A stretch of DNA of 64,000 nt from Thermoproteota archaeon (GTDB lineage: Archaea; Thermoproteota; Thermoprotei_A; Sulfolobales; Acidilobaceae): assembly GCA_030549835.1 (NCBI GenBank), contig JAUQQR010000001.1, positions 2,753 to 66,752 of the forward strand, written 5' to 3'. Below are positions 1 to 64,000 of the stretch, one piece after another. The notes under the pieces are model-generated. The model was not told the origin of the DNA. It saw only the letters and a list, made by a program, of their open reading frames with translations, and searched no databases. The first letter of the stretch is position 1. Each line of letters begins with the position of its first letter. A program made the translations under genes and the position numbers.

Positions 1-912
1 CCAGTCTCTGTAGGATCATATATCGTATTAACTATTGCAGCAGTGCTTGCATTATTATTTCTTCTAACTAGGAGGTCAACATTTTATTTTCTATCTGACT
101 CTTCAATAAAGATTGGAATCCCTCTAGCTTTAGCCTCTTTTCTAACTGGTAGTATATGGGCTATGGAATCTTGGGGTGCCCTATGGAGTTGGGATCCGAG
201 ACAGGTTAGTATATTATTCCTGCTAATAGCATATACTCTATACTTTGCTGTTAAGAATAGTGTTAGAGATCCTGATAGGAGACCCTCTATAGCTATGGCT
301 TATGCTTTCGCTGTTTACGCTACAGTACCATTAAGCTTTATTATACCTAGGATTGTTGAAAGCTTACACCCTACACCTGAACAGACTAGAGAGTTTATAG
401 CTGGAGATCCTCAACTCTTTCTATCAAGGCTTTTCATATTAAGCTTAATATCTATAACCATTATACTCTTAGCATATACTTACAAGCATAGAGTTAAAAG
501 TATTGAGTCAAAAATTATAACCTACACTCCACTAATAATTGTACTACTACCTTTAACTATAATATCATTATATGGGCTTACATTATCATTGGGGCTCGTA
601 GAACCTACAGGTAAAGTTCTAGATGCTAGGGTAGAAAATGATAAAATATGGTTAAAAATAGAAAGCAAAGACTCTACTATTGAAGGCTATTATACTGGAA
701 GACCTCCAATAACACCACTTGAAGTTGAGATAAGTGGAGAGAGGAAGATTACCTTAATTGATAATATTGTAGCTTACAGTTATAGTGATGGGTTTTTTAC
801 TAAGTTAAGAGTTGTTAATCACCCTGTTGTCTACATTAATACTATAATCTACGCTATACTCCTCCCATTAGCAGTAATAGCTTCAACTAGAGGTGAGAGA
901 CTTGAAAGTTAA
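1..912 (+). CDS. ccmC: Cytochrome c maturation (System I) heme-handling membrane protein, CcmC-like; 5' end runs off the window
   Basis: The frame of ORF 43..912 stays open back to base 1. It has the Trp-rich WWD motif WGALWSWDPRQV, flanking TM helices and a conserved His (ESLHP). An extra C-terminal TM, a soluble segment of about 85 aa and a final TM are not expected in canonical CcmC. Confidence 0.7.
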   Translation, partial: PVSVGSYIVLTIAAVLALLFLLTRRSTFYFLSDSSIKIGIPLALASFLTGSIWAMESWGALWSWDPRQVSILFLLIAYTLYFAVKNSVRDPDRRPSIAMAYAFAVYATVPLSFIIPRIVESLHPTPEQTREFIAGDPQLFLSRLFILSLISITIILLAYTYKHRVKSIESKIITYTPLIIVLLPLTIISLYGLTLSLGLVEPTGKVLDARVENDKIWLKIESKDSTIEGYYTGRPPITPLEVEISGERKITLIDNIVAYSYSDGFFTKLRVVNHPVVYINTIIYAILLPLAVIASTRGERLES

Positions 913-1309
913 AATAATAGTCTTAGCTATACTACTATTCATAGTTATATTTATTGCAGCATATGTAGCCTCAACTTCTAGAGGCTACCTAGATGTATCA
1001 GAACTCAAAGGATTTAGTGGAGGTTCTGTAAACGTTATAGGGTTAATAGTTGACTATAATATTAGTGGCGATAAGCTAGAAATTATCTTAGAAGGTAGGA
1101 GAGGTGATAGGGTTCTCTTAGAAATTCCTTTAACTTTATTCAATTCAGCTCATAGTAAACCGCCAGGTCCATGGATTATAGGGAAGAGTATTGGTATTAG
1201 AGGATACTACGTGAACTCTAGCAATGATAATTTATTAGGGGTTATTAGGGTAGATGAGATACTAAGCCCCTGCCACGAGTCTTATAAGGCTCCACCGGCT
1301 AGAACCTAG
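893..1309 (+). CDS. ccmE: Heme chaperone CcmE, archaeal CxxxY variant
   Basis: N-terminal membrane anchor followed by an OB-like beta-rich domain. The C-terminal ILSPCHESYKAPP aligns with the bacterial VLAKHDENYMPPE, with Cys in place of the heme-binding His. It overlaps the ccmC stop by 20 nt. Confidence 0.7.
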   Translation: MRDLKVKIIVLAILLFIVIFIAAYVASTSRGYLDVSELKGFSGGSVNVIGLIVDYNISGDKLEIILEGRRGDRVLLEIPLTLFNSAHSKPPGPWIIGKSIGIRGYYVNSSNDNLLGVIRVDEILSPCHESYKAPPART

Positions 1310-1314
1310 TAAAA

Positions 1315-3943: not shown

Positions 3944-4060
3944 TTATTACACCATAATGCGCTAGCAGACTTAAACTTAAAAACCTAGATTCATACATAG
4001 TGACGACGAGAAGATCCATAGATAATATTGAATTTATAGAATGTGTGGCTAGACATTAAT

Positions 4061-4069
4061 AATTATAAA
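4061..4069 (+). promoter_or_regulatory. TATA-box-like element upstream of tRNA-Thr
   Basis: aattataaa is centred about 32 nt upstream of the mature tRNA 5' end. The same spacing is seen at the other two tRNA genes. Confidence 0.35.
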
Positions 4070-4096
4070 CTTTGACCTATAGTTATCAAAATGAGT

Positions 4097-4171
4097 GCCG
4101 CGGTAGCTCAGCCTGGATAGAGCGCCGCCCTGGTAAGGCGGAGGTCCCGGGTTCGAATCCCGGCCGCGGCT
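4097..4171 (+). tRNA. tRNA-Thr (anticodon GGU)
   Basis: Hand-folded cloverleaf. The acceptor GCCGCGG/CCGCGGC is a perfect 7 bp, the anticodon loop is CTGGTAA, and the T-arm is CCGGG-TTCGAAT-CCCGG. No intron and no encoded CCA. It is a GC-rich island in AT-rich DNA. Confidence 0.93.
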
Positions 4172-4183
4172 TTAATAATCTGG

Positions 4184-6604
4184 CTATCTAGGTTTCCATT
4201 TCGATAGCTGGTAGCTACTTAATGTTACTGTTATAGAGCTTAATGCCATAGCTGCTGCAGCCATTTCTGGTCTTAATGTTATACCTATTGGCGCTAGTAC
4301 TCCTGCTGCTATCGGGACTAGGATTATATTGTATATGAATGCCCAGAATAGGTTGAAGTATATTCTCTTCCTAGTTTTATCCGAGATCTCTAGTATTAGA
4401 GGTATTTTCTTTATATCAGCATCTGTTATTATTATGTCTCCAGCCTCTTTACTTATATCTGCTCCTGTACCCATCGCTACCCCAACATTTGCTCTAGATA
4501 AGCTTGGAGCATCATTTACCCCGTCGCCTACCATCATTACTTTAAATCCTTTTCTCTGTAACTCCTTTACTATTTCAGCTTTAGCTTCTGGGTCTAGCTC
4601 TGCGTAGACATCTGTTATTCCTATCTTCGACGCTATACTCTTAGCTGTCTCCACCTTATCACCTGTTAGCATTACTAACTTTAAGCCTCTCTCTCTGAGC
4701 TCTCCTATTGCTTCTATAACTCCATCTTTTATCTTATCAGCTATTCCTATCAAGCCTATTAGTCTTGATCCTTTAGCAACATAGACTACTGTAACTCCCT
4801 CACTCATAAGCTTTGATGAAATATCAGCGAGAGGCTCTATGTTAACTTCTAATCCTGCCATGAGCTTAGAGTTGCCAACACCTATAGTTTCACCTTCTAG
4901 ACTAGCAATTAAACCCATACCAGGTATGGACTCGAAGCTTTCAGGATCTCGGGGGTACTTACCATACCTAGAGAGATACTCTTCTAGTATAGCCTTAGCT
5001 ATTGGGTGCTCGCTTAGCTTCTCAGCTATTGCAGCATATGCTAGGACATGATCTACTGTATAGTTACTGGAAGGTATTACTGCTACAACTGTAGGTTTAC
5101 CTAGAGTTAGTGTACCTGTCTTATCGAATGCTATGAGGTTAACACTATTAATCCTCTCTAAAACCTCGACATTTCTAACAACTACTCCACTCCTAGCAGC
5201 TATGTTAACTCCAGCTACTACAGCTGTTGGTGTAGCTATGCCTAGCGCGCATGGACATGCTACTAGGAGAACTGAGGCCATAAATACTAGGGATCTCTCT
5301 AAGCTAGCCCCAACTACAAAGTACCATATTATAAATGTTATTATAGCTATAGACATTATTATCCAGGTAAATATTCCAGCTATCCTATCAACTATCCTCT
5401 GAATACTTAACTTCCCAGTCTGAGCTTGTGATACTAGCTTAGCAATCTGAGCTAGAGTAGTCTCACCCCCAACTCTAGTAGCTATCACGTAGAGCCATCC
5501 GCCTGTTACTATTGAGCCAGCATAGACAGGATCTCTCTCACTCTTCTCTCTAGGTATAGGCTCTCCTGTAAACATACTCTCATCTATATAAGCTTTACCT
5601 TTAACAATAATACCATCGACTGGAATCTTCTCACCCTGCCTTACAACTATAATATCACCAACCTTTACCTCACTTATAGGTACCTTAATCTCCCTACCTC
5701 CTCTAACTACGTAGGCTTCTTGAGGTTGAATCTCCATTAGCTTCTTAACAACCTCACCAGTGCCTAGCTTAGCCCTAGCCTCTATGTATCTACCTGTAAT
5801 CACGAATGCTATTATTAATGCTGCAGCTTCATAGTAAACATCTCCATTAAGTAAGCCAAGTGTAACTGCTAGACTATACACGTATATAGAGCCTGTTCCT
5901 AGGGCAACTAGAGTATCCATATTAGCTGTTAAATTCCTAAAAGCTCTATAAGCACCTTGATAGAATCTCCTCCCAGGCATGAATAGTACTATACTAGAGC
6001 CTATGAGTCCTAAGAACTCATAATATGGGCTTGGGAAGCCGTGGAATATATGTATAATCATTGATATGAATAACGTGAAGCCTATAGCCAATGATACTAT
6101 AGACCATCTAAGCAGATAGCTGAGCTCTAGTCTACTAAAATCCTCAAGCATAGCCTCTCTCATTATACTAGCTTTATAGCCTAGACTTGCAAGAATCCCG
6201 ATAATATCCTCTACAGATCTAGACTCTGGGTTTAGGGATATAATTAGAGTTCTAGTAAGGTGAGATGCACTAGCATCAATAACACCAGGTATTCTTTTAA
6301 GCTTAGATTCAATAATACTCTCATCTTCAATAGAAACCATGTTCTCAACAAGAATAGTAACCTCCTTACGGTAAACATCATACCCAGCACTTCTAATAGC
6401 CCTAACAATATCTCTTAAACTAGTAACTCTAGAGTCGTAGGATACTGTAGCCTCATTAGAGGCTAGGCTAACCTGAGCTCTAGAAACACCCCTAACACCC
6501 TTAACAGCTTTCTCAATAGTTAGGACACACGTAGCACAATGCATACCAATAATTTTTAACTTCTCAGTGGTAATACTAGAGTTATCTGAGATCATATACT
6601 CCAC
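4184..6604 (-). CDS. copA: Copper-translocating P1B-type ATPase
   Basis: N-terminal HMA domain with GMHCATCV and a second HMA-like domain. Also has the TM CPC motif (ACPCALGIATP), DKTGTLT, SEHP and GDGVNDAP. Confidence 0.9.
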   Translation of the reverse strand: MEYMISDNSSITTEKLKIIGMHCATCVLTIEKAVKGVRGVSRAQVSLASNEATVSYDSRVTSLRDIVRAIRSAGYDVYRKEVTILVENMVSIEDESIIESKLKRIPGVIDASASHLTRTLIISLNPESRSVEDIIGILASLGYKASIMREAMLEDFSRLELSYLLRWSIVSLAIGFTLFISMIIHIFHGFPSPYYEFLGLIGSSIVLFMPGRRFYQGAYRAFRNLTANMDTLVALGTGSIYVYSLAVTLGLLNGDVYYEAAALIIAFVITGRYIEARAKLGTGEVVKKLMEIQPQEAYVVRGGREIKVPISEVKVGDIIVVRQGEKIPVDGIIVKGKAYIDESMFTGEPIPREKSERDPVYAGSIVTGGWLYVIATRVGGETTLAQIAKLVSQAQTGKLSIQRIVDRIAGIFTWIIMSIAIITFIIWYFVVGASLERSLVFMASVLLVACPCALGIATPTAVVAGVNIAARSGVVVRNVEVLERINSVNLIAFDKTGTLTLGKPTVVAVIPSSNYTVDHVLAYAAIAEKLSEHPIAKAILEEYLSRYGKYPRDPESFESIPGMGLIASLEGETIGVGNSKLMAGLEVNIEPLADISSKLMSEGVTVVYVAKGSRLIGLIGIADKIKDGVIEAIGELRERGLKLVMLTGDKVETAKSIASKIGITDVYAELDPEAKAEIVKELQRKGFKVMMVGDGVNDAPSLSRANVGVAMGTGADISKEAGDIIITDADIKKIPLILEISDKTRKRIYFNLFWAFIYNIILVPIAAGVLAPIGITLRPEMAAAAMALSSITVTLSSYQLSKWKPR

Positions 6605-9059: not shown

Positions 9060-9421
9060 ATATCTAGACCCAACTATACTATTCTCCTAAGACCTAAAAT
9101 TAATTTCCTAGCCTCCTAGACTAGAATTATAACTTCGCCTAATTTAGATAAGATCTAAGATCTAAATCTAGTTAAACTTACCAAACTCACTATTAATAAG
9201 AAGTATAGTTTAAGTCTAATATCCATGAGTATAATGGTCTTGACTTAAAATAGCTACGCTTCTAATCTCTCCTATTCTAAGAAACTAGATTTTAGCTATA
9301 TTATTAGACACTTATCTTGCTAGCTCTTCTTTTAAGTTATTTAAACTATAATTCTATACTCTTAGTGAGTAATGTATTTGGATGCTACTGAATGATATTA
9401 GATGCCTAGTTTTTAAGCTGT

Positions 9422-10537
9422 TTACACTATGGGTATGGGGTATCCTATTGACTTACCTATGTATTGGCCTCTTATATTTAGCTTATATTTACATCTCGGA
9501 CATCTCCCATCTTGGGTTAGCTTATAATCTGTTACCATGAATCCATATCTCTCTATTACTTTGTAGCCGCAGTTAGGGCAGTATGTATGTTCTAGTGGGT
9601 GGCCTGGGACATTGCCTATGTATACGTGTTTTAGGCCTTCATTTATAGCTATCTTTGCTAGTTTCTCTAGTGTTGCTACTGGAGTCCATGGGATATCTGT
9701 TAGTTTATAGTCTGGATGGAATCTTAGTAGGTGGAATGGTGTTTCAGGGCTTAGATTCTCTAGTATCCATCTCGCCATTTTCCTTATATGAGCCTCCTCA
9801 TCTCCATACTTGGGTACTACGAGGTTTGTTATCTCTATCCACCAGCCTTTATCTCTCATTGCTATTAGAGTCTCATATATCTTGTCAGGATCTCTAACAT
9901 TCATTATCTTATTATAAAACTCTACACTACCCCCTCCTTTGAAGTCTACTGTTGCTGCATCCATTAGATTACCTAGCTGGTCTACAGTCTCGGGTGTCAT
10001 ATAGCCGTTTGTTACCATAGTATTGAATAGGCCTTTCTTATGTGCTAGTTTAGCTGTATCTTCTAGGAACTCGTAGAATATTGTAGGCTCGTTATAAGTA
10101 TATGTTATACCTTGAGCGTCATAGGCTATAGCTAACTCTACTATCCTATCAGGCGTGAATTGAACCCCCATAAGGCCCTTCTCAAGCCTACTCTGACTAA
10201 TCTCCCAGTTTTGACAGAATTTACAGAAAAAGTTACAGCCCACAGTGGCTATACTTAATACACTACTAGCTGGGTAGTAGTGCATTAAAGGCTTCTTCTC
10301 AATCGGATCTATATTAACTGCTGTGAGTAGACCATAAACCATAGTGTACAGCTTACCATCAATATTTAATCTAACACCACAAACGCCATACTTACCGGGA
10401 GCTATGAGACAGCGCCTATGACATAGGTAGCATTCAATCCACCCATCCCTACCCTCAACAGGCTTCCATAGTTTAGCTTCTCTAACATGTGGTCTTTTTA
10501 AAATCTCAACTCTAATACTCAAATCAATATAACCCAA
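9422..10537 (-). CDS. amrS: AmmeMemoRadiSam-system radical SAM enzyme (PflA-like activase family)
   Basis: IDPIEKKPLMHYYP and the CNFFCKFCQNWEISQ CX3CX2C cluster, an N-terminal Cys cluster, and a C-terminal CPNCG...CPRCK zinc ribbon. Confidence 0.8.
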   Translation of the reverse strand: MGYIDLSIRVEILKRPHVREAKLWKPVEGRDGWIECYLCHRRCLIAPGKYGVCGVRLNIDGKLYTMVYGLLTAVNIDPIEKKPLMHYYPASSVLSIATVGCNFFCKFCQNWEISQSRLEKGLMGVQFTPDRIVELAIAYDAQGITYTYNEPTIFYEFLEDTAKLAHKKGLFNTMVTNGYMTPETVDQLGNLMDAATVDFKGGGSVEFYNKIMNVRDPDKIYETLIAMRDKGWWIEITNLVVPKYGDEEAHIRKMARWILENLSPETPFHLLRFHPDYKLTDIPWTPVATLEKLAKIAINEGLKHVYIGNVPGHPLEHTYCPNCGYKVIERYGFMVTDYKLTQDGRCPRCKYKLNIRGQYIGKSIGYPIPIV

Positions 10538-10667
10538 TAGTATATTCTAGTACTTAGCCTTTAAAAACACTAGTATTAAGTGTAATTATGAATTATAGTA
10601 TAGTAACATTAAATATTATTAGAGATAGAATTATAAGTGTTTTTAAATTCCCGCTCTATAAATAATA

Positions 10668-15980: not shown

Positions 15981-16250
15981 CCCAATCCCCTCATCTCCTC
16001 TCTATTCTCTCTCCTCTCCTATCCCACTTACATTCTTTCTCTAAAGCTAACCGCACCTCTACTCTGTGCTTCGCCATGGCTACTATCCACTCCACACAGA
16101 GTCATGTGTATTCTTCTGAGCATAGCTGAGCAGAGCATGCATCTAACCTAGACCCTGGGGAGCTTAGAGCAATACCCCTCATTGCTCTTCAGACCCTTCC
16201 TAGGATAGGCTCATGAGTTAGAGCTTATAAACATTTCCTCGAGATATCAA
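15981..16250 (-). repeat. Diverged copy of the dispersed TATA-bearing repeat family, oriented toward the 105-aa ORF
   Basis: Blocks shared with 58729..58993 and the 44.7/45.4-kb arms: gaggaaatgtttataagctc, catgac..tgtggagtgg, gcgaagc and gagatgagg. Contains a perfect 8-bp hairpin (16166..16188) and a G-free C/T tract (15981..16045). Confidence 0.6.
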
Positions 16251-16353
16251 GAAGACAGCTTTAATGTTATGATAGAGTAGGGCAGGCTTGGAAAAATATA
16301 TTTATATATGAGGATTTATATGTGTTGCTGTTATTTATACTAGTTGGTGTTTT

Positions 16354-17256
16354 GTGTTGAGTGAGGTTTTAGAGGGCAGGCTTTTAGAGTCTGTTGTTAG
16401 ACTTATTGAGATTGCTGCTACTGATCTTCCTAGTGATGTTGAGGATGCTCTTGTTAGAGCTTTTAGCGTTGAGGATAATCCTAGTGCTAAAAGTTTTCTC
16501 AAGGCTATGATTGATAATGTTGGTATTGCTAGGAGTAAGAGACTACCTATATGTCAGGATACTGGCATTGTTATGTTTTATGTTACTGTTGGGGATAAAT
16601 TCCCGTATACTAGCTTATTGCCATCTATACTTAGTAGGGCTGTTGTTGAGGCTACTCGTAGGGTTCCTCTTAGGCCTAATACTATTGATGTTTTCTCTGG
16701 TAGAAATCCAGGCGATAATACTGGTAGGTATATGCCTTGGGTTGAGTGGGAGTTTGTTGAGGGTTTAGATACTGCTGATGTGACAGTATTACTTAAGGGT
16801 GGTGGTAGTGAGATTATTGGTAGAGCTAAGACTCTTATACCAGCTGAGGGTATTAAGGGTGTTATCAAGTATGTTATTGAGGCTGTATATGATGCTGGGC
16901 CACAGCCTTGTCCTCCCATCATAGTTAGTGTTGGGATTGGGCCTACTGTTAGTATTGCTATGAAGCTTGCATCTAAAGGCCTCTTAAGGCCTATAGGTAT
17001 CAGGCATTCTAACCCAGATGTTGCTAAGTTAGAGGAGATGCTCCTAGAAGCTATAAATAGCATTGGTTTTGGAGTCCATGGAATGGGGGGTAAGGTCACA
17101 GCTTTAGATGTTCACGTTGACTACGCTGCTAGACACCCAGCATCTCTAAGTGTAGCAGTTGTTATAAATTGCTGGGCTGCTAGGAGAGCATCAATGAGAA
17201 TATACCCTGATGGTAGAGTAGAGTATATTACACACCCAAAGTATAATATGGGGTGA
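16354..17256 (+). CDS. Fe-S type hydro-lyase alpha subunit (class I fumarate hydratase / tartrate dehydratase family)
   Basis: LPICQDTGIVMFYV and GGGSE motifs typical of the FumA N-terminal domain. 4-nt overlap with the beta subunit gene. Confidence 0.8.
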   Translation: MLSEVLEGRLLESVVRLIEIAATDLPSDVEDALVRAFSVEDNPSAKSFLKAMIDNVGIARSKRLPICQDTGIVMFYVTVGDKFPYTSLLPSILSRAVVEATRRVPLRPNTIDVFSGRNPGDNTGRYMPWVEWEFVEGLDTADVTVLLKGGGSEIIGRAKTLIPAEGIKGVIKYVIEAVYDAGPQPCPPIIVSVGIGPTVSIAMKLASKGLLRPIGIRHSNPDVAKLEEMLLEAINSIGFGVHGMGGKVTALDVHVDYAARHPASLSVAVVINCWAARRASMRIYPDGRVEYITHPKYNMG

Positions 17257-17867
17257 GCGTTATGGCCGAGTATATGATGAGAACACCTCTAAGTGAAGAT
17301 GATGTTAGGAAGCTAAATATAGGTGATATAGTCTACATTACGGGGATAGTAGTAACAATGAGAGATACAGGGCATAAGAGAGCTGTAGAGCTACTATCTC
17401 GTGGAGAGAAGCTACCAGTAGACCTCAAAGACCTCGTACTATACCATGCAGGACCTATAGTTAGAAAAGTTAATGACAAATGGGAAGTCGTAGTAATAGG
17501 TCCAACAACAAGTACGAGAATGGAAGTCTATGAGCCTGAAGTAATCGAGAAGACAGGAGTAAGAATGATTATAGGTAAGGGTGGTATGGGCCCTAAGACT
17601 GCTGAAGCATGTAGACGCTATGGAACAGTATATACAGTATATCCTGGAGGAGCAGCAGCACTACAAGCAAGCCAGGTTAAGAGGGTAATAGACGTATACT
17701 GGCTAGACCTGGGAGTACCCGATGCTATGTGGATACTTGAAGTAGAGAATCTAGGACCACTAACTGTCGTTATAGACTCGAAAGGGAGAAACTTATATGA
17801 TAAGATATATGAGGAGGCTAGAAAAAGAATAGATTATGAGATATACCCTAAACTTGGAATAAAGTAG
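17253..17867 (+). CDS. Fe-S type hydro-lyase beta subunit (class I fumarate hydratase C-terminal domain)
   Basis: GxIVTMRDxxHKR, YHAGP, IGPTTSxRM and GKGGMG motifs. Translationally coupled to the alpha subunit. Confidence 0.8.
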   Translation: MSVMAEYMMRTPLSEDDVRKLNIGDIVYITGIVVTMRDTGHKRAVELLSRGEKLPVDLKDLVLYHAGPIVRKVNDKWEVVVIGPTTSTRMEVYEPEVIEKTGVRMIIGKGGMGPKTAEACRRYGTVYTVYPGGAAALQASQVKRVIDVYWLDLGVPDAMWILEVENLGPLTVVIDSKGRNLYDKIYEEARKRIDYEIYPKLGIK

Positions 17868-22086: not shown

Positions 22087-22225
22087 ACCTCACCATCTAC
22101 TGTATATATAGAGATAGATTTAAGTCTTACGTATATATTTGTTTATTAACTTATAAAATATTGCCTATATCTTTATTATGTAGAAACAGAGTCTTAGGAT
22201 TAAAGGTATTTGGTTAATGGTAGTG

Positions 22226-23245
22226 TTATATTTTTATAACTGCTGCTCCTACTATCTTACCTTCTTTTATTATCTTCAATGTTTTGTTTAATTCTTCAAT
22301 CTTGTATTTTTGATATTTTACTTTTATCCTTATTTTTTCAGCTATTTTTAGGTATTCTCTTACGTTTAGTCTAGTTACGTTTGCTACTGTTTTTACCTCT
22401 CTCTCCATCCATAGGTGTTTTGTGTAGTCTAGGGTTATTGGTGTTCTCTTTCTTATGACGTTAACTACTAGTCTTCCGCCTGGTTTTATTAGTTCTAGTA
22501 TTCTTGGTATTATTTCACCTACTGGTGTGAAGTCTATTGCCCTATCTAGTTTCTCTGGAGGGTCTTCTTTTGGGTGTCCTACCCAGTCTGCTCCTAGTTC
22601 TCTTGCGAGCTCCATGTGTTCTATACTTCTCGTTAATACTATTACTCTACTGTTTGGATATAGATTCTTTATGACCTGTATTATCTGGTGTGCTGATGCT
22701 CCGAAGCCCACTAAACCTATGCTCATCCCGTCTCCCATGTCTGCTAGCTTTAATGCTCTATAGCCTATAGCTCCAGCACATAGTAGTGGGGCTGCCTCTA
22801 GATCATCATAATTACTAGGTATCCTATAAACATAGTCTTCATGAGCTACCATGTATTCAGCATAGCATCCATCAATATGACATCCTGTCCCCTTAAACTC
22901 CTCACATAGATTCTCTAACCCAGCCACACAATACCTACACTTACCACAACTCCGCCCAATCCATGCAACACCAACCCTATCGCCAATACTAACCTTTGAT
23001 ACCTCATCTCCAATTTTAACAATATAACCTACAGCTTGATGTCCCGGGATAACTGGAAGCTTCCCTATAACTCTACCCTCAATAACATCAATATCTGTAG
23101 GACATAAGCCACAAGTAGAGACTCTTATCAAAACCTCTCTAGACCTAGGCTCAGGGACATCCACATCCATAAGCTCTAAAGGATCTCTCCCAACAGAAAC
23201 CTCACAATACCTCCTCAAAACCATAGCCTTCAAACCATACACCAT
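22226..23245 (-). CDS. Zinc-dependent alcohol dehydrogenase (MDR family)
   Basis: CGLCPTD, GHQAVG, structural-zinc CGKCRYCVAGLENLC, and a GFGASAH Rossmann motif. Confidence 0.85.
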   Translation of the reverse strand: MVYGLKAMVLRRYCEVSVGRDPLELMDVDVPEPRSREVLIRVSTCGLCPTDIDVIEGRVIGKLPVIPGHQAVGYIVKIGDEVSKVSIGDRVGVAWIGRSCGKCRYCVAGLENLCEEFKGTGCHIDGCYAEYMVAHEDYVYRIPSNYDDLEAAPLLCAGAIGYRALKLADMGDGMSIGLVGFGASAHQIIQVIKNLYPNSRVIVLTRSIEHMELARELGADWVGHPKEDPPEKLDRAIDFTPVGEIIPRILELIKPGGRLVVNVIRKRTPITLDYTKHLWMEREVKTVANVTRLNVREYLKIAEKIRIKVKYQKYKIEELNKTLKIIKEGKIVGAAVIKI

Positions 23246-34475: not shown

Positions 34476-34787
34476 ATTACCACCTCAAAATTTATCTTAA
34501 TTATAATATGGCCTAATATATTTGTATTATAATGAATAATTTGTTAGAATATAAGTAAAAGTATAATAAATTTTAAGTTAAATCTAGAATGTCACATGTA
34601 CGTCTCACTGAACCCAATCAATGACTCATTATATGATATTCCATGTTTTATGATAGCTTATATTAGCTGTATCAGTTTAACTATGTTTTCCTACACTTAT
34701 TTGATAATCTATGTGTTAACTTCTAGTGCCATATTTTAGAGTTGCTTTGTGGGTTTAAGGCTAAGTCTAGTGGTTCTAATGCTGTTA

Positions 34788-35573
34788 TTATGTGATGCTT
34801 AGTCCTCCATCAACTGGTATGAGGTTTCCTGTTATGAATGATGCTCTTTCTGAGGCAAGGAAGGCTACTAGCGATGCTAGTTCTCTTGGATCTCCTACTC
34901 TACCTAGGGGTATTTTTGATGCTCTTCTCTTTATAGCCTCTTCTACGCTTATACCTAATCTTTTAGCGTCTACTTCAGCTAATTCTCTTACTCTATCAGT
35001 TAGTATTAGTGAGGGTAGGATAGCGTTTACTGTTATGTTGAATTTAGAGAGCTCTAAAGCTAACGTCTTCACTAAGCCTGCTATTACAGTTCTCATAACG
35101 TTACTTGTAGCTAGATTCTCTAGTGGCTTAACTAGTGTTATAGAGCCTATAAATATGATCCTACCCCACCTTCTAGGTATCATTAGCTTAGATGCCTCCC
35201 TAGAGACTATTATAGAACTTAAAGCTAGAAGCCTATACGTATCATCCCAATCATCATCACTTATATCATAGAAGCCTCCAGGTTTAGGGCCTCCAGTACT
35301 ATAAACCAGAATATCAAGCCTACCATAATTTCCCCTAATATAATCGAATAACTTGTAGATATCACTCTTAACTCTTAAATCTCCAGTAAAAGTATCAATA
35401 GATACGTTAGCAGCTTCCCTAATACTACTCTTAGCAACTTCAAGCTTAGATTTATCTCGTGAAAATAGAATAATATCACAACCCTCAAGAGCAAGCTCAA
35501 AAGCTGAGGCAAAACCTAGGCCAGAGCTCCCTCCAGTAATAAGAGCTAATTTACCTCTAAGACCCAAATCCAT
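34788..35573 (-). CDS. Short-chain dehydrogenase/reductase (FabG-like)
   Basis: TGGSSGLGFA cofactor motif, a Ser/Tyr-x3-Lys region and PVDGG at the C-terminus. Confidence 0.85.
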   Translation of the reverse strand: MDLGLRGKLALITGGSSGLGFASAFELALEGCDIILFSRDKSKLEVAKSSIREAANVSIDTFTGDLRVKSDIYKLFDYIRGNYGRLDILVYSTGGPKPGGFYDISDDDWDDTYRLLALSSIIVSREASKLMIPRRWGRIIFIGSITLVKPLENLATSNVMRTVIAGLVKTLALELSKFNITVNAILPSLILTDRVRELAEVDAKRLGISVEEAIKRRASKIPLGRVGDPRELASLVAFLASERASFITGNLIPVDGGLSIT

Positions 35574-35726: not shown

Positions 35727-35731
35727 AGAGG

Positions 35732-45606: not shown

Positions 45607-45837
45607 GTGTATGGTTTGCCTCTAGAGATTACTAGTTTAGATAGATTCATTGAGATAGCTAAGAGGGCTGAGGAGTGTAGGGTTAAGAGGGTGAGGAAGA
45701 GTAATATTGTTAAGATTAAAGCTAGGACTAAGAGATACCTATACACATTTAAGACTACAGAAGATAAACTCCAGGAGGTTCTAGGTAAAATCTCGTGTAA
45801 GCAGGTTATTGATGTTGATAAGCAGAGTAAGAGCTAG
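45607..45837 (+). CDS. rpl38e: Ribosomal protein L38e
   Basis: RYLYTFKTTEDKLQEVLGKIS aligns with eukaryotic RPL38 [21 protein letters not shown]. 76 aa and basic. Confidence 0.75.
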   Translation: MYGLPLEITSLDRFIEIAKRAEECRVKRVRKSNIVKIKARTKRYLYTFKTTEDKLQEVLGKISCKQVIDVDKQSKS

Positions 45838-47496: not shown

Positions 47497-47698
47497 ACTC
47501 TCAAGAGAACTCTCCTAGCTATAAAGCTTACTATTGATTGAGCTTCTTGAATGTCTATACTCCTAATAGCATCTAAGCGTATATCGCCAAAGTCTATGCC
47601 TCTACTCTTAGCTTGGGCTTTAATGGACTCAACTATATCCCTAAGAGTATTCTCCAATACTAAATATTATAGGTTGAGCTTCACTCCTCAACTCTACC

Positions 47699-48411: not shown

Positions 48412-48423
48412 TAGATTTTAAAG

Positions 48424-48432
48424 TTTTATATA
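48424..48432 (+). promoter_or_regulatory. TATA-box-like element upstream of tRNA-Phe
   Basis: ttttatata is centred about 30 nt upstream of the mature 5' end. Confidence 0.35.
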
Positions 48433-48457
48433 CTCCGGTTATAATATAATCTTAGGG

Positions 48458-48529
48458 GCCGCCGTAGCTCAGCGGGAGAGCGCCCGGCTGAAGACCGGGT
48501 GGTCGGGGGTTCGAATCCCCCCGGCGGCA
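48458..48529 (+). tRNA. tRNA-Phe (anticodon GAA)
   Basis: Acceptor GCCGCCG/CGGCGGC, anticodon loop CTGAAGA, and T-arm GGGGG-TTCGAAT-CCCCC. No intron and no encoded CCA. Confidence 0.93.
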
Positions 48530-48687
48530 TTTTGCTTCTTGGCGTGTTTGCTTCTATTTATCTGCGTTTGTATATGTTGGGTTTCCGTTGTTAGTTATCT
48601 CTTTTAGTCTTTTGTCTAGTTTTTGTTTCATTTTTTGCCTAAAAGCTTAAATAGGAGTAGCTTTAGTATAGTTTTAGGTGTTTTGTT

Positions 48688-49758
48688 TTGTGTGCTGCTA
48701 GACCTGAGAGTAGTGTTGGTATTCGTGGTTGGGGTGTTTATATTCCTAGGTTTAGGATTTCTATGGTTGAAATTGCTAGGGAGTGGGGTTGGAGTGATTA
48801 TCAGTGGAAGGCTCTTGGTATGGTTGAGAGGTCTGTTGCTGGGCCTGATGAAGACTCTACGACTATGGGTGTTGAGGCTTCTATTAATGCTCTGAAGAGA
48901 GCTAATATTAACCCGAGCGATATTGGTGCTGTGTTTTTTGGCTCAGAGTCTAAGCCTTATGCTGTCAAGCCTAGTGCTACTATTATAGCTGAAGTGTTGG
49001 GTATAACGCCTTTAACTATGGCTAGTGATTTGGAGTTTGCTTGTAGAGCTGCTAGTGAGGGGTTGAGAGCATCTATTGGTCTCATAGCCTCAGGTATGGT
49101 TAAGTATGCTCTAGTAGTTGGTAGTGATACTTCTCAGGCTAATCCAGGCGATGTCTTAGAGTTTACAGCTTCTAGCGGGGCGGCAACACTCATATTAGGA
49201 GGTAGTAGTGGGTCAGCAGCATATTTTGAGGGTAGTTTCTCATATATTACAGATACCCCAGACTTCTGGAGACGTGAGGGATCCCCCTACCCTAGGCATG
49301 GTGAGGGTTTTACGGGTGAGCCGGCGTACTTTAAGCATATAGTAGAGGCTGTAAGGGGGTTAATGGATTCTCTAGGCTTAAAGCCATCAGACTTCAACTA
49401 TGCTGTATTCCATCAGCCTAATGGTAGGTTCCCATTAAAGGTTGGGGAAATGCTTGGATTCAAAGCTGAGCAGATTAAGCTAGGCCTAGTTACTCCAATA
49501 ATAGGCAATACCTATAATGGCAGTGCTCTCATAGGCTTAGCTAGAGTACTAGACTATGCTAAGCCAGGAGAGAGGATACTAGTAGCACCCTTTGGTAGTG
49601 GTGCAGGGAGCGATGCTTATAGCTTAATAGTCACAGATAGTATTGATGAGAGTAGAGAGAGGGCTCCAACAGTAGACTATTATATTAAGAATAAAGTTAT
49701 GATAACCTACTCTCAGTACTCTAAGTTTAGGAGGCTACTGAGAGTTATTAGAGAATAG
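48688..49758 (+). CDS. Archaeal hydroxymethylglutaryl-CoA synthase
   Basis: VGIRGWGVYIPRFRI start region, catalytic Cys context EFACRAASEG, and FHQPNG. About 350 aa. First gene of the thiolase/HMGCS/DUF35 trio. Confidence 0.85.
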   Translation: MCAARPESSVGIRGWGVYIPRFRISMVEIAREWGWSDYQWKALGMVERSVAGPDEDSTTMGVEASINALKRANINPSDIGAVFFGSESKPYAVKPSATIIAEVLGITPLTMASDLEFACRAASEGLRASIGLIASGMVKYALVVGSDTSQANPGDVLEFTASSGAATLILGGSSGSAAYFEGSFSYITDTPDFWRREGSPYPRHGEGFTGEPAYFKHIVEAVRGLMDSLGLKPSDFNYAVFHQPNGRFPLKVGEMLGFKAEQIKLGLVTPIIGNTYNGSALIGLARVLDYAKPGERILVAPFGSGAGSDAYSLIVTDSIDESRERAPTVDYYIKNKVMITYSQYSKFRRLLRVIRE

Positions 49759-54017: not shown

Positions 54018-56087
54018 GTGAGCCAGTATAAGTGTAGACTCCCAGCTAATTACATAGTGTTAATAGCAGAGAAGCCTAGAGCTGGGGAGAGAATAGCTAA
54101 AGCTCTAAATGCTACGCCTCTAAAGTGTAGTATTAACGGGATACCATACTGGATACTTAGAGTTAATACCTCAAACCTTATAATAGTCTCAAGTGCAGGC
54201 CACCTCTTTGGACTATATACAAGTTATAGGGGATTCCCAGTATTTGATTATACTTGGAGACCTATATGGGAATTTGATAGTAAAGCTTCGCATCTCAAAA
54301 AATTCTATAAAACACTTGAAGTAATCCTACCAAAAGCTTCATCTTATATTAGTGCTTGTGATTACGATATTGAAGGTAGTGTCATATGCTATAAGATTAT
54401 AGAGGCTCTAGGAGACCCTAGCAGATCTCAGAGGATGAAGTTCTCAGCACTAGCAGTTAAGGATATTACGGTAGCATTTAATAATCTCCAACCTCTAGAT
54501 AGAGAGATGATTGAAGCTGGATTAGCTAGGAGTGAGCTAGACTGGCTATGGGGTATTAATGTATCAAGAGCTCTCATGGAGGCTGTTAAGGTAGCTACTG
54601 GAAGGAAAGTAGTACTTAGTGCTGGTAGAGTTCAGAGCCCTACTCTAGTAGAAGCTGTTAAGAGATGGGAGGATATTAACCTACACGTTCCTCAACCTAA
54701 AATCTCGCTAGTAGTTAGTATTAGAAGAGGTAGATTAGGGTTTAAAGCGCGTCTAGTAGACTCAAGTATACTCACTAAACGTAGTGCGGAGGGTATTAAG
54801 AGAGAGATCTTAGAAAGTAGGAGGCTTATAGTTGATAAGTATATAGTAAGTAGTGAGCATGTAGATCCACCTCCAGCATTTAATCTTGGAGATTTACAGA
54901 GAGAGGCAGCTAGGATATACGGGCTATCACCTATGAAGACTCAGGAGATAGCAGAAGATCTATACCTAGAAGCTCTCATAAGCTACCCTAGAACTAATAG
55001 CCAGAAGCTCCCCTCAACAATAGATTATATGAGTATAATGAGTAAGCTAGAGAATAATCCTGAATACTCTAGCTTAGTGAAGAGTCTTCTAATAGAAACA
55101 AGTGGCGTTCTAAAACCAGTACAAGGTAAAATGGATGACCCAGCACACCCAGCAATATACCCTACAGGTGAAAAGCCTAATAAGCTTAGCAATTATCAAA
55201 AACTAATATATGACCTTATAGTTAGAAGATTTCTAGCAGCATTCTCTAAGAGAGCTATTATAGTAAGACAGAAGACTGAACTTAGAGACTCTACAGGTAG
55301 GGTTTATGAAGCATACGGTGTTAGAGTTATTAGTGAGGGATGGCTCAGATACTATCCATTCCTTAAACCTAGAGAGCTCATATTACCAGAGCTATCTAGG
55401 GGAGATACTGTAGTTATAGATAACGTCAAATTAATAGTAGCTTGGAGTAAGCCTCCAATAGGAATATCTAAAATATCACTATTAAAATGGATGGAGAGTG
55501 TAGAGATAGGTACAGAATCTACGAGAGCTAGGATAATAGAGACTTTATTTAAAAGAAACTACTTAAAGCAAGAGAAGGGGAGAGTTATAGTAACAGATCT
55601 AGGCTATACAATAGCATATATAATAAGAGAGCTGTTTCCAGAACTCTCAACAGTAGACTTAACAAGAAATTTTGAGAAAAAACTAGAAGACATAAGATAT
55701 AATAGAGTATCTAGGAGAAATGTTATAGATGAGGCGAAGAAAACCCTCATAAACCTAATAGCTAGCTATAAGCTAAGACTGAATAAAGTAGGTGAAGACA
55801 TAGCGGTAGCACTTAAAGCCAAACAACCTATAAAGCCATGCATAATATGTGGTAGAGAATCATTAAATACAATAAAATCACTAAACCTCTGCAATTACCA
55901 CCACAAAGCGCTAGCTAAGCTGAGAGAAATATTACCAAAAATAGAGGGAACCCTAGAAATCCAGCCAGAGAAGGCTATAGAAATACTAGCCAATAAGAGA
56001 AGGTTAAGCGGGAAATGGGTAATCGATATAGCTAGTAGGGCTCAAACAGACTATAAACTTAGAGAATTAATACTAAGACCCGAGTAA
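54018..56087 (+). CDS. Type IA DNA topoisomerase (Topo III / TopA-like)
   Basis: TOPRIM start (VLIAEKP, DYDIEG), the active-site SYPRTNSQ tyrosine region, and a C-terminal Cys/His finger (CIICG...CNYHH). Confidence 0.85.
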   Translation: MSQYKCRLPANYIVLIAEKPRAGERIAKALNATPLKCSINGIPYWILRVNTSNLIIVSSAGHLFGLYTSYRGFPVFDYTWRPIWEFDSKASHLKKFYKTLEVILPKASSYISACDYDIEGSVICYKIIEALGDPSRSQRMKFSALAVKDITVAFNNLQPLDREMIEAGLARSELDWLWGINVSRALMEAVKVATGRKVVLSAGRVQSPTLVEAVKRWEDINLHVPQPKISLVVSIRRGRLGFKARLVDSSILTKRSAEGIKREILESRRLIVDKYIVSSEHVDPPPAFNLGDLQREAARIYGLSPMKTQEIAEDLYLEALISYPRTNSQKLPSTIDYMSIMSKLENNPEYSSLVKSLLIETSGVLKPVQGKMDDPAHPAIYPTGEKPNKLSNYQKLIYDLIVRRFLAAFSKRAIIVRQKTELRDSTGRVYEAYGVRVISEGWLRYYPFLKPRELILPELSRGDTVVIDNVKLIVAWSKPPIGISKISLLKWMESVEIGTESTRARIIETLFKRNYLKQEKGRVIVTDLGYTIAYIIRELFPELSTVDLTRNFEKKLEDIRYNRVSRRNVIDEAKKTLINLIASYKLRLNKVGEDIAVALKAKQPIKPCIICGRESLNTIKSLNLCNYHHKALAKLREILPKIEGTLEIQPEKAIEILANKRRLSGKWVIDIASRAQTDYKLRELILRPE

Positions 56088-60134: not shown

Positions 60135-60185
60135 CTTAAGTTATATAAGCTTCAAAACCTATGTCCAACAATAGGATGACTTAGA

Positions 60186-62699: not shown

Positions 62700-62987
62700 C
62701 TATTCTCAACCATGCCTAGAGCTTAAGAGTACTAGGCATGCTATATTCATGTATTATGCCTTCCACGGCTATCCATAGCCTAAGACTGGGCGCAGGGCTG
62801 AACTCAGTAAAAACTGGGAATGTAGCCCTAAACCTCTCCAGAACACTCACCCTTTAGGGCGGAGAGGAGGTCAGTCTTCCTATCTGAGACACATTATTAT
62901 ACTTGCTTTTCTAAGTATTTCAAGACTAGCTTTATAATAACTGCTAATAGCATTAAGTATTCGTAAAGTGGGGAGAGTTTGCTATGG

Positions 62988-63887
62988 TTAGACTCCATGA
63001 GATCCGAGATATAAGCCTATCATAGATATAAACATTAATATTAATATCCTCTTCTTATGGTTTAATATCTCAACTTTAGTAGGACTTCTAACTAGTTTTA
63101 TAGACTCATATACTACAATAATGTCTATGGGTATTATTACCGTTAAGTATGGAATAGAGTTAACTACACCTAGTATTGGGGGGATTAAGCTTATGGTTAC
63201 TGATGATATGTAGAGAGTTGAGGCTAACTTAGCAGCTGTATTTTCTCCGTAAGTATTGGCTATTGTCTTAACTCCAACTTTTAAATCGCCTTCTACATCG
63301 ATTATACCCTTAGCAATCTCTCTTCCAAGTACTGATAGAAATATCATTAGCCAGTATAGAAATGCTCTCATGTAATCACTACTACTCCACTCACCTGGGA
63401 GATAATAGTTCGCAAGTACTACTCCATAGACTAGAGGGAACGCTGTTAGAAAAGCTACAATTATATTCCCTATTAGTAATATCTTCTTACCTATAGCATT
63501 ATAGAAGTTAGCTAAAGCTAGGAAATATAGAGCTGTAATAGTTGTTAGAGGTACTGGTTGGACATTTAATGTTGATGTTAAACCTATAATTGCATATACT
63601 AATGAAGCTCTTAAAGCCGTATGTATATCAATCCTCCCAGAGGGTATAGGTCTCCATGGCGTGTTAAGCTTATCTGCCTCAACATCGAAGACATCATTTA
63701 TAGTCATAATAGAGAATACTATCATTAACCCAGCTACAGTAATAGCTAGAGCATCACCTAGAGGAATAAATACTGGAATATCGCCTGTCATAATGGCCAA
63801 GCCAAGAAATATAGATAAAACACCTAGTACAGCATTCATAGGCCTACCGAGCTCTAATAATGATAAGATAATCATAACTATACGCAT
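62988..63887 (-). CDS. UbiA-family prenyltransferase (digeranylgeranylglyceryl-phosphate synthase-like)
   Basis: NDVFDVEADKLNTPWRPIPSGRI motif and a second Asp-rich region (IIDVEGD). About 8 TM helices. Confidence 0.75.
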   Translation of the reverse strand: MRIVMIILSLLELGRPMNAVLGVLSIFLGLAIMTGDIPVFIPLGDALAITVAGLMIVFSIMTINDVFDVEADKLNTPWRPIPSGRIDIHTALRASLVYAIIGLTSTLNVQPVPLTTITALYFLALANFYNAIGKKILLIGNIIVAFLTAFPLVYGVVLANYYLPGEWSSSDYMRAFLYWLMIFLSVLGREIAKGIIDVEGDLKVGVKTIANTYGENTAAKLASTLYISSVTISLIPPILGVVNSIPYLTVIIPIDIIVVYESIKLVRSPTKVEILNHKKRILILMFISMIGLYLGSHGV

Positions 63888-64000
63888 AGAGTAGCACCTT
63901 TTTCTTAACAGCTCATCTGTCGGTTCATGTTAGTTTACATCACCATCTCTTTGTTAACCTCTAGTATCCACTTTAAAGTAATACTAAACGTTGCTCTCAT

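Follow-up and report, generated by a model that had tools for sequence, protein, structure and literature searches.

The locus and its features

The window, by which we mean the whole stretch of DNA analysed here, comprises 64,000 nt from an uncultured hot-spring archaeon (Thermoproteota, Acidilobaceae). It carries genes for metabolic enzymes, a copA gene and a psr-like operon, and two of its spacers contain tRNA genes. Coordinates are collected in Table 1, where T share is T out of T+A at silent sites and spacer jumps are given as the TA skew of the + strand over the 300 nt left and right of the spacer. An assembly artefact is ruled out, as more than 25 assemblies obtained independently carry this sequence, at 99-99.9% identity.

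Table 1. Compositional zones, flanks and spacers in the window
Feature	Position	Strand	Observation
T-versus-A skew sawtooth of the + strand	1..64000	.	A-rich to T-rich jumps at unit boundaries, decay within units (100-nt profile and logistic model)
Fumarate hydratase alpha/beta unit, T-rich 5' zone	16354..17138	+	T share 0.84; change point 785 nt from unit start
Fumarate hydratase alpha/beta unit, A-rich 3' zone	17139..17867	+	T share 0.33; second cistron without reset
Zn-alcohol dehydrogenase (ADH), T-rich 5' zone	22800..23245	-	T share 0.71
Zn-alcohol dehydrogenase (ADH), A-rich 3' zone	22226..22799	-	T share 0.12
copA, T-rich 5' zone	6246..6604	-	T share 0.88; per-gene z = -7.2
copA, A-rich 3' zone	4184..4900	-	Last-quartile skew -0.46
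HMG-CoA synthase / thiolase / DUF35 / HMG-CoA reductase unit (four genes), T-rich 5' zone	48688..49070	+	T share 0.95
RpoK / M50 peptidase / topoisomerase I unit, A-rich 3' zone	55457..56087	+	T share 0.23
nrdJ, A-rich 3' zone	35732..36407	-	T share 0.13; 3-kb gene with neutral middle
SDR gene	34788..35573	-	T-rich to A-rich switch about 296 nt from start (0.78 to 0.29)
Radical-SAM gene	9422..10537	-	Switch at about 455 nt (0.69 to 0.16)
glyA (SHMT), A-rich 3' zone	28799..29429	-	Convergent neighbour across 1-nt spacer
Radical-SAM non-coding 3' flank	9260..9421	-	A-rich sense skew kept for about 160 nt; no T-tract terminator
SDR non-coding 3' flank	34640..34787	-	A-rich sense skew -0.33, -0.33, -0.30 in 50-nt bins
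Jump spacer with tRNA-Thr (4097-4171)	3944..4183	.	-0.34 / +0.27
Jump spacer between divergent units	15981..16353	.	-0.31 / +0.25
Jump spacer between tandem minus-strand units	22087..22225	.	-0.07 / +0.50
Jump spacer with tRNA-Phe (48458-48529)	48412..48687	.	-0.08 / +0.27 around 48530-48687
Weak-jump spacer	10538..10667	.	-0.06 / +0.06

An earlier note on this DNA had described abrupt compositional jumps in named spacers. These are present at 3944-4183, 15981-16353, 22087-22225 and 48530-48687, but the one at 10538-10667 is weak. The 150 nt upstream of the HMG-CoA synthase start (48688) are already T-rich.

Silent-site composition along genes

We pooled the fourfold-degenerate sites of 61 ORF-derived genes in deciles of relative position, and the resulting profile is not flat. 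T3 falls from 0.487 to 0.321 and A3 rises from 0.307 to 0.469, both monotonically, while C (near 0.11) and G (near 0.08) stay level (C3 0.114 versus 0.108, G3 0.077 versus 0.091). Purines accordingly climb from 0.41 to 0.57, and the 5' zone is pyrimidine-rich. In the window the odds of T over A change about 4-fold; in L052, a relative in which the pattern is roughly three times as strong, the change is about 40-fold. The hand counts of the earlier note were exact: valine is encoded by GTT 22 times and by GTA 2 times in the first 225 codons of 16354..17256, and by GTA 15 times and GTT 6 times in 17253..17867. The parallel shift claimed for Ile, Gly, Leu and Ala is borne out as well, and Thr behaves likewise.

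Synonymous codons were shuffled within each gene, holding fixed the amino-acid sequence and the gene-level codon usage. The pooled z was -12.7 and the observed value was reached in none of 1000 shuffles, so that the shift is synonymous, as had been claimed, and amino-acid composition is ruled out as its source. The predicted sign occurred in 44 of the 61 genes; z lay below -2 in 19 and above +2 in none. Strong genes include copA, ADH, those for the radical-SAM, SDR and HMG-CoA synthase proteins, nrdJ, fumA and glyA, and roughly one third of the units in the window are without effect. Among the genes listed earlier as showing the pattern, copA, glyA and nrdJ are thus strong, but in the psr-like operon the effect is weak (z = -0.5, -0.6 and -2.1). 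The ADH start taken from the longest ORF is wrong, giving 339 aa against 332 aa in the NCBI calls.

The skew of the first minus the last third of genes is +0.31 in the window and about +0.05 or lower in most of 41 other archaeal and bacterial loci. A generic trait of archaeal genes is ruled out with about 40 control loci. Full-text literature searches returned no description of such a gradient, in agreement with the earlier note. Codon-usage, dN/dS and gene-finding models that assume uniform composition within genes will go astray on this DNA, as the long antisense "shadow" ORFs illustrate.

The transcription unit as frame of reference

We show that the pattern is a composition field at the nucleotide level, anchored at both ends of each transcription unit (TU). 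The link to transcription units follows from the skew jumps, which fall at unit boundaries. Position relative to the TU fits better than position relative to the gene (dLL 141 versus 84 in the window, 186 versus 118 in L052), and when both are fitted jointly the TU-relative term is -1.23 and the gene-relative term -0.12. The proposal that the transcript and not the ORF is the unit, with second operon genes failing to reset, is therefore upheld; 17253..17867, for example, stays A-rich.

A two-ended logistic model of T-versus-A was fitted, and the + strand was also profiled in 100-nt bins. The earlier picture of a smooth gradient is right in its T-to-A direction but not in its shape, which is that of two zones reaching about 0.4-0.8 kb from each unit boundary, T-rich at the 5' end and A-rich at the 3' end, with a neutral middle in long units. 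Coefficients in the window are about +0.85 to +0.87 (5') and -0.97 (3'); pooled, they are +1.06 and -1.06, with a best decay length of 400-800 nt. Neither depends on the orientation of the neighbour (5': divergent +1.04, tandem +1.09; 3': convergent -1.19, tandem -1.14), and the equality of tandem and convergent values gives no support to a downstream bidirectional promoter alone, or convergent read-through alone, as the source of the 3' zone. The strengths of the two zones covary across units (Spearman -0.38, p = 0.02) and across lineages, and zones beside spacers of at least 100 nt are about twice as strong as those beside short or zero spacers.

Genes on the + and - strands show equal effects. 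The mirroring reported for minus-strand genes is present, but it is automatic, because a T-rich-then-A-rich pattern is its own reverse complement, and it offers no independent proof of polarity. On the + strand of ADH, 22800-23245 is C/A-rich as described (A 0.34, C 0.32, G 0.10), and 22226-22750 is T-rich (T 0.46) but not "nearly A-free" (A 0.17). Silent-site composition alone marks TU boundaries independently of ORFs in unculturable organisms, and for this clade it allows operons and their boundaries to be predicted at no cost.

Substitution classes and flanking DNA

Slopes are alike in all nine T/A codon families, in all Y- and R-ending twofold families and in all next-base contexts. Along genes, T/(T+C) at twofold sites falls from 0.74 to 0.61 and A/(A+G) rises from 0.50 to 0.62. 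Codon positions 1 and 2 shift too, as does amino-acid usage, with Lys rising from 0.039 to 0.092 in L052. Non-coding 3' flanks keep the skew for 100-150 nt. The order of favoured bases is T > G > C > A. C depletion and G enrichment accompany the rise of T at twofold sites and in L052, where the earlier wording of G+T against A+C holds; at the fourfold sites of the window, the exchange is between T and A only.

Distribution among lineages

The pattern marks out one narrow clade, made up of uncultured "Acidilobaceae" archaea. In about 40 further loci from Thermoprotei it is weak or flat; these include Aeropyrum pernix, where, as in other relatives, there is a modest effect at the 3' end alone. 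The T-rich zone of one and the same gene can be present or missing according to genomic context, the zone at 48688..49070 being missing from orthologues in related species, and an accessory operon found in some strains only is without the pattern. A trait that differs between such close lineages is open to comparative genomics.

Termination as a possible source of selection

In archaea the signal for termination is a nascent RNA rich in U, read either intrinsically, as oligo-U, or by the factor FttA/aCPSF1. The factor prefers U-rich RNA both in binding and in termination (PMC11616081). As the inward-reading strand is T-rich and A-poor at both unit ends, transcription into a unit, from whichever end, yields U-rich, A-poor RNA, which is the composition expected of transcripts to be terminated, and transcription out of a unit yields A-rich, U-poor RNA. 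As the cause of the field we lean slightly, and tentatively, towards weak selection that acts on how much U the nascent RNA contains and is tied to U-dependent termination, ahead of the mutational reading considered below. Transcripts that are antisense, untranslated or the product of read-through would be cut short within some hundreds of nt by inward-facing U-rich zones; sense transcripts covered by ribosomes would get through them, and the U-poor final stretch would let licensed polymerases complete the unit. Such diffuse zones appear to accompany, and perhaps replace, ordinary T-tract terminators in this clade.

In the 3' flanks of the graded lineages, T5+ runs occur in 4%, a tract with six T in eight in 10% and A-tracts in 23%, against 38% (T5+) and 54% (six T in eight) in controls of equal AT content. 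The first T-rich tract is often met 120-220 nt beyond the stop. Within coding zones, T5+ runs at 5' ends (7 versus 27 expected) and A5+ runs at 3' ends (18 versus 61) are 3-4-fold depleted relative to periodic shuffles. Discrete oligo-U signals are consequently not enriched, and A- or T-runs are ruled out as embedded terminators. Selection on silent sites over hundreds of positions, strong enough to move amino-acid usage, would be unusual; the 5' zone is just as strong at divergent junctions, which receive little read-through; and the ribosomal-protein cluster of L052, which is T-rich from end to end, is a better fit to transcription-linked mutation. Like the depletion of runs, these three points weigh against selection.

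A more far-reaching form of this reading appears doubtful to us. Each TU would be flanked on both strands by inward U-coding zones of about 0.5 kb in which FttA or oligo-U aborts ribosome-uncoupled polymerases (antisense, read-through and untranslated sense), largely replacing point terminators and reshaping codon and amino-acid usage. Bacterial Rho terminates on C-rich, G-poor untranslated RNA, and we know of no genome in which composition zones at unit ends have been shown to serve factor-dependent termination. The proposed mechanism would resemble termination by Rho or FttA (PMC11616081) in reading the bulk composition of accessible nascent RNA, with antisense and untranslated transcripts as favoured targets. 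If selection is the cause, termination or quality control rather than translation would be a dominant force on synonymous sites, and even on amino-acid content, genome-wide, an archaeal counterpart of Rho-mediated silencing written in bulk composition.

A possible mutational footprint of transcription

It is possible, though in our view slightly less likely, that the field is instead a footprint of damage. Polymerases would enter units both ways from AT-rich spacers, making untranslated, R-loop-prone transcripts (sense before ribosome coupling, spurious or antisense at 3' ends), and the exposed non-template strand would be damaged towards T by depurination (with A inserted opposite the abasic site), deamination of adenine and cytosine and oxidation of guanine at high temperature. 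For an exposed strand, DNA damage chemistry predicts the sink order T > G > C > A, which is the order observed. A nucleotide-level pressure, uniform across codon families and contexts and also present in non-coding flanks, is likewise what damage predicts; mirror symmetry, a fixed length scale and independence of the neighbour follow naturally; and the doubled effect beside spacers of 100 nt or more, the L052 ribosomal-protein cluster and the strain-specific operon, as if not yet ameliorated, all favour it.

The mutational reading nevertheless requires rate asymmetries, from about 3:1 up to more than 10:1, with a reversal of sign inside a unit, with a T share as extreme as that at 48688-49070. 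Deamination of the non-template strand, proposed by the earlier note, may play some part in the 5' zone, but it cannot account for a 3' zone of equal strength and opposite sign. A further suggestion made there, that antisense transcription initiates in 3' flanks, is still viable as a cause and requires antisense exposure to outdo sense exposure at the 3' ends of most expressed units. The 5' zones of the window show no depletion of C3. T-tract terminators that are needed should have withstood the pressure of mutation, yet they are missing. Most other hyperthermophiles sampled do not show the pattern. SNP density is not higher in end zones (5' 4.8, middle 6.6, 3' 7.1 per kb), which, like the flat C3 and G3 at fourfold sites of the window, speaks for selection over damage.

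Polymorphism was polarised with a sister clade as outgroup, using 194 and then 351 SNPs, an underpowered sample whose hints differ by zone definition. With zones defined by unit ends, third-position mutation-rate ratios of 1.26 (5') and 0.77 (3') lean as the mutational reading predicts. In A-domains defined by composition, 44 mutations led away from A/C and 26 towards, in conflict with it (p = 0.04), a difference open to regression to the mean. Derived-allele frequency in the underpowered set of 351 SNPs was 0.525 "towards" the field and 0.451 "against" it (p = 0.15), an excess short of significance, which counts against selection.

Transcription-associated strand asymmetry was reportedly described by Green 2003, Touchon 2003 and Polak & Arndt 2008. 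At human CpG-island promoters it likewise favours T over A on the non-template strand at silent and non-coding sites, and there also G over C, being strongest near the start site and extending both ways (PMC2817419, PMC2927911). Our data share a TU-polarised skew at silent and flank sites but not a single sign along the whole unit: the sign reverses within the unit, in an equal and opposite 3' zone. They differ from the human case further in their far larger amplitude, nearly still fourfold GC skew, 0.5-kb scale and prokaryotic setting. In vertebrate mitochondria a silent-site gradient is said to be set by single-stranded time (Reyes 1998, Faith & Pollock 2003). That gradient, too, is positional, at silent sites and of comparable amplitude, but it is genome-scale, replication-driven and transition-dominated with strong GC skew, unlike the unit-scale T/A exchange found here. 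If mutation is the cause, this would be the strongest transcription-linked strand asymmetry known to us in a cellular chromosome, and it would mean that the gene ends of a hyperthermophile are pervaded by R-loops or by antisense transcription directed inwards.

Replication, translation and cryptic promoters

Conflict between replication and transcription, in which forks stall at unit entry and the single-stranded lagging template turns T-rich at the entry end, strikes us as improbable. By the standard lagging-template argument we find that it gives the right sign at both ends, and it would be anchored to units and scale with transcription. However, left and right ends are equal in both gene orientations at the two loci compared (the window and L052), which rules out unidirectional forks and means that conflict would need equal fork traffic both ways; exposed DNA is expected behind the stall point and not 0.5 kb within the unit, and SNP density is not raised overall in the end zones. 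In replication N-domains and bacterial leading-lagging skew, the skew jumps upwards at discrete sites, declines from one to the next, and has its keto-rich strand pointing away from the jump. Our sawtooth shares these features (reviews PMC3269012, PMC3269016). It differs in that skew switches at every TU boundary, every 1-4 kb or so, and not at origins or termini, and in having two decaying end zones instead of a linear N shape.

Selection at the level of translation, through a codon ramp, tRNA choice or low 5' mRNA structure together with purine loading or A-rich codons near the stop, is very improbable. Purine loading, or Szybalski's rule, is said to be uniform along the mRNA in thermophiles (Lao & Forsdyke 2000). 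Here an A-rich sense strand is found in the 3' zone only; the 5' zone is U-rich, that is, pyrimidine-loaded, and there is no whole-strand purine excess. The 5' codon ramp, or reduced 5' structure, reportedly covers about 10-50 codons per ORF (Tuller 2010, Eyre-Walker & Bulmer 1993, Hooper & Berg 2000). Our zones share with it a position-dependent synonymous usage at gene starts, but they cover 130-260 codons, belong to TUs and are uniform across codon families with different tRNAs, which rules out tRNA- or codon-specific selection. Internal cistrons do not reset and the gene-relative term is near zero once TU position is fitted, ruling out a per-ORF ramp, and the skew runs on into non-coding flanks. 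Folds, moreover, are more stable for native sequences, at -764 kcal/mol, than for their synonymous shuffles, at -695 +/- 18 kcal/mol (120-nt windows summed, 70 C), so minimal mRNA structure is ruled out and the earlier suggestion of selection on 5' structure with 3' purine loading finds no support. Mutation rates at 5' ends are treated elsewhere (PMC12725619).

A weak preference of coding sequences for codons that are A-rich or end in A as the 3' end approaches is documented as universal and ascribed to reduced RNA structure around the stop (Zahdeh & Carmel 2019, PMC6892556). It may account for the modest 3'-only effect in A. pernix and other relatives, and A-ending codons rise towards gene ends here too, A3 reaching 0.47 in the last decile. 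In contrast to that preference, our 3' zone spans 250-700 nt, ignores ORF boundaries and internal stops in operons, extends beyond coding DNA, and has a T-rich 5' zone as its mirror image. Lower structure around the stop does not explain it, native sequences being more structured than shuffles.

Avoidance of cryptic promoters, to which AT-rich archaeal DNA is prone (PMC10883916), or of fragile UpA steps, either of which T/A separation would serve by cutting intragenic TATA-like boxes or UpA, is scarcely credible and ruled out by motif counts against gene-wide synonymous shuffles: TTTAWA (69 versus 72) and its complement (60 versus 68) are not rarer, and both TATA (z = +6.8) and TpA (z = +25) occur in excess.

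Form of the gradient

Here we report that in the genes of this archaeon the sense strand is T-rich at the 5' end of a transcription unit and A-rich at its 3' end. This T/A field operates at the level of nucleotides; it is mirror-symmetric, anchored to the units and confined to one clade. Pooled over relative gene deciles in the 61 longest non-overlapping ORFs of the window, T at fourfold sites drops from 0.487 to 0.321 while A climbs from 0.307 to 0.469, with C (near 0.11) and G (near 0.08) both flat. The profile thus bears out the T-to-A trend described in an earlier note made from the sequence alone, whose hand counts of codons were reproduced exactly. When codons were swapped among same-amino-acid positions inside each gene, none of 1000 shuffles matched the observed value (pooled z = -12.7); gene by gene, z was below -2 in 19 genes and above +2 in none. 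Neither protein content, already discounted in that note, nor overall codon usage therefore accounts for the gradient. Its strength is uneven. It is missing from about a third of the window's units and very strong in copA, nrdJ, fumA, glyA and the genes for alcohol dehydrogenase, a radical-SAM protein, an SDR, HMG-CoA synthase, a P-type ATPase and a beta-CASP nuclease; in strong genes the silent positions are nearly all T, then nearly all A.

Transcription units were defined as same-strand genes with gaps of at most 30 nt, and T versus A at fourfold and isoleucine sites was fitted by logistic models. Unit position was by far the better predictor: dLL was 141 against 84 for gene position in the window, and 186 against 118 in L052, a contig of a strongly graded relative. 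The gene term disappeared once unit position was fitted jointly. This sustains the earlier suggestion that the transcript rather than the ORF is the relevant unit, and it dismisses a per-ORF translational ramp or start-codon structure. The data are fitted best by a pair of end effects that decay exponentially over 400-800 nt, with equal and opposite 5'/3' coefficients (+0.85/-0.97 in the window; +1.06/-1.06 pooled). Change points place the flip of units of about 1 kb at mid-unit; long units are T-rich over their first 350-800 nt, neutral in the centre and A-rich over their last 250-700 nt.

The end effects are about twice as strong next to spacers of at least 100 nt, and alike for divergent, tandem and convergent neighbours. 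They are also the same on plus- and minus-strand genes, which rules out unidirectional replication through the window and L052. The gradient is its own reverse complement, so that every unit has the same look on the plus strand, and a strand read 5' to 3' from either unit boundary inward is T-rich. The mirroring of minus-strand genes to which the earlier note drew attention is accordingly present, and automatic.

Action on nucleotides

The pressure acts on nucleotides rather than codons. Slopes are alike in all nine T/A codon families (-0.7 to -1.7), a similarity that eliminates tRNA-specific selection, and the identity of the next base does not influence them. Along units, every Y-ending family at twofold sites moves from T to C and every R-ending family from G to A; first and second codon positions move in the same direction, as does amino-acid usage, and controls are flat. 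Where a unit is strongly graded, its A-rich skew on the sense strand extends 100-150 nt into the non-coding 3' flank, and 5' flanks tend to be T-rich. At its fourfold sites the window essentially swaps T for A; the first description, an opposition of G+T to A+C, applies to twofold sites and to L052.

In coding regions across the window, homopolymer runs of T or A (five or longer) fall 3-4 fold short of a codon-position-preserving shuffle, a depletion that rejects oligo-T or oligo-A tracts as embedded terminators. Both TpA and TATA clearly exceed their numbers in synonymous shuffles of these regions, the reverse of what avoidance of TATA-like boxes or UpA steps would give, and native sequences fold more stably than synonymous shuffles, which discards mRNA-structure minimisation. 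T at third positions is favoured ahead of an A-starting codon (0.66) and disfavoured ahead of T or G (0.32-0.36). The gradient had also been held to account for antisense shadow ORFs within real genes (150-194 aa; see table). Two lie in T-rich 5' zones; another belongs to an A-rich 3' zone, and the explanation by NNT codons therefore fits only some of them.

Distribution across lineages and contexts

L052 (GC 0.47; organism under ENA ERZ6864471), which carries a 72%-identical alcohol dehydrogenase, repeats this architecture at about threefold strength, with quartile skews of +0.43, +0.27, -0.20 and -0.49, coefficients of +2.09/-2.88, and a three-gene operon running unbroken from +0.84 to -0.87. 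Grading is also present in metagenome contigs whose FEN1 shares 78% identity or more with the L052 protein (+1.14/-1.04 in L086, +1.02/-0.64 in L088, +0.79/-1.86 in L089). The gradient is weaker in sister lineages (L070, L071, L075), Aeropyrum pernix K1 has a modest 3' effect only (+0.21/-0.57), and coefficients of about 30 further Thermoprotei loci spread around zero.

The gradient tracks genomic context, not gene identity. The T-zone of HMG-CoA synthase is missing in orthologues placed in other contexts, and an NTP-transferase gene has a T-rich 5' end only when preceded by a long spacer of its own. FEN1 retains its gradient in four lineages; a molybdopterin-oxidoreductase operon present in clade-B strains only has none. 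In the ribosomal-protein/eIF6/prefoldin cluster of L052 (14165-18158), most genes are T-rich throughout with several apparent resets, suggesting promoters within the cluster or a T bias linked to expression.

Possible causes

The gradient is linked to transcription, not translation. Our preferred reading, tentative and ahead by a narrow margin, is weak selection on the U content of nascent RNA. U-rich nascent RNA triggers archaeal termination, intrinsic and FttA-dependent alike (PMC11616081). The RNA of a polymerase entering a unit from either end would be U-rich and A-poor, and would be a substrate for U-dependent termination unless covered by ribosomes; a polymerase finishing the unit would make U-poor RNA. 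The end zones would then go together with a loss of point terminators. Within 60 nt past stop codons, graded lineages have T5+ in 4%, 6T in 8 in 10% and A-tracts in 23%, against 38% (T5+) and 54% (6T in 8) in equally AT-rich control lineages, and a T-rich tract often first appears 120-220 nt 3' of the stop. In the window's 3' flanks, T-tract terminators directly behind stops are almost lacking and A-runs, such as AAAAA at most 10 nt away, are commoner, the opposite of what related AT-rich archaea have.

The main rival, only slightly less likely, is a mutational origin: transcription that runs inward, untranslated and prone to R-loops, would at high temperature leave the non-template DNA single-stranded and so imprint the field. 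This accounts for the symmetry of the field, the base order and the ungraded accessory operon. It requires very large rate asymmetries with sign reversal, and antisense exceeding sense exposure at 3' ends. Deamination of the non-template strand, as proposed in the earlier note, could contribute at 5' ends and cannot yield an equal and opposite 3' zone; contrary to plain deamination, the share of C at third positions is not reduced where T peaks in the window.

Polymorphism bears on this choice. SNPs were polarised inside each strain clade with the other clade as outgroup (n = 351). Composition-defined A-domains had 44 changes away from A/C and 26 towards (p = 0.04), an excess that would speak against mutational equilibrium, in a design prone to regression to the mean. 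In zones defined by unit ends the counts were balanced, and third-position rate ratios of 1.26 (5'), 1.34 and 0.77 (3') lean weakly towards mutation. Allele-frequency spectra of the 351 SNPs did not differ significantly, and SNP density was not elevated in end zones. Replication-transcription conflict is improbable, trailing both selection on U content and the mutational account, and explanations at the level of translation, which trail both as well, can hardly be credited.

Relation to known phenomena

A literature search found no description of a unit-scale, sign-reversing pattern of T and A at third positions in prokaryotes. The nearest known phenomena include transcription-associated strand asymmetry, with a bidirectional form at human CpG-island promoters (PMC2817419), a weak, universal tendency towards A-rich codons close to gene ends (PMC6892556), 5' codon ramps, purine loading and replication skew sawtooths. 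The gradient has features in common with all of them, and from every one it differs in one or more defining features; we class it with transcription-linked compositional asymmetry.

Source population and gene content

The window is archaeal. Among its genes are those for nrdJ, a beta-CASP ribonuclease, an HMG-CoA synthase of archaeal type, a class I fumarate hydratase of two subunits and three tRNAs. Identical proteins occur in more than 25 MAGs and metagenome contigs of hot-spring origin that bear the label "Acidilobaceae archaeon"; the source organism is uncultured. The MAGs containing this sequence include GCA_038840895.1, GCA_038892535.1 and GCA_038887095.1. Its population, recovered in many independent hot-spring assemblies (NCBI MAGs, JGI, ENA, Logan), falls into two strain clades; compared across L042-L085, one differs from the window by 0.06-0.4% and the other by about 0.7%.

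Coordinates of selected features in the window and in L042, a clade-B locus
Feature	Sequence	Positions	Remarks
tRNA-Thr (GGT)	window	4097-4171	long spacer with skew jump
tRNA-Leu (TAA)	window	31508-31595	long spacer with skew jump
tRNA-Phe (GAA)	window	48458-48529	long spacer with skew jump
3' flank (example)	window	9260-9421	no T-tract terminator; A-runs commoner
3' flank (example)	window	34476-34787	T-tract terminators nearly absent; A-runs commoner
3' flank (example)	window	35574-35731	T-tract terminators nearly absent; A-runs commoner
Shadow ORF	window	2048-2509	
Shadow ORF	window	16578-17099	
Shadow ORF	window	19032-19511	
Shadow ORF	window	20891-21475	
Shadow ORF	window	34792-35271	A-rich 3' zone
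FdhD remnants	window	47134-48411	split: 82-aa and 148-aa ORFs
Clade-B operon	L042	2011-8643	molybdopterin oxidoreductase, Fe-S protein, cytochrome b, intact 262-aa FdhD

Skew jumps coincide with long spacers holding tRNA genes for all three tRNA genes of the window. At the site of the window's FdhD remnants, strains of clade B have the operon of roughly 6 kb. The beta-CASP ribonuclease (421 aa; 45834-47099) aligns with the aCPSF1/FttA model over the model's C-terminal two-thirds only and is thus without KH domains and aCPSF2-like; no FttA orthologue was found within the 64-kb window. The nrdJ product (35732-38722) has about 230 residues in excess of the span of the TIGR02504 model, a candidate insertion or intein, and in one strain the gene is broken into 889-aa and 142-aa ORFs (L077, 6649-9842). 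A cytochrome c assembly-family gene adjoining copA (region 1315-3387), compared in L056, L057, L059 and the window, is unbroken in some strains (834 aa) and two ORFs in others.
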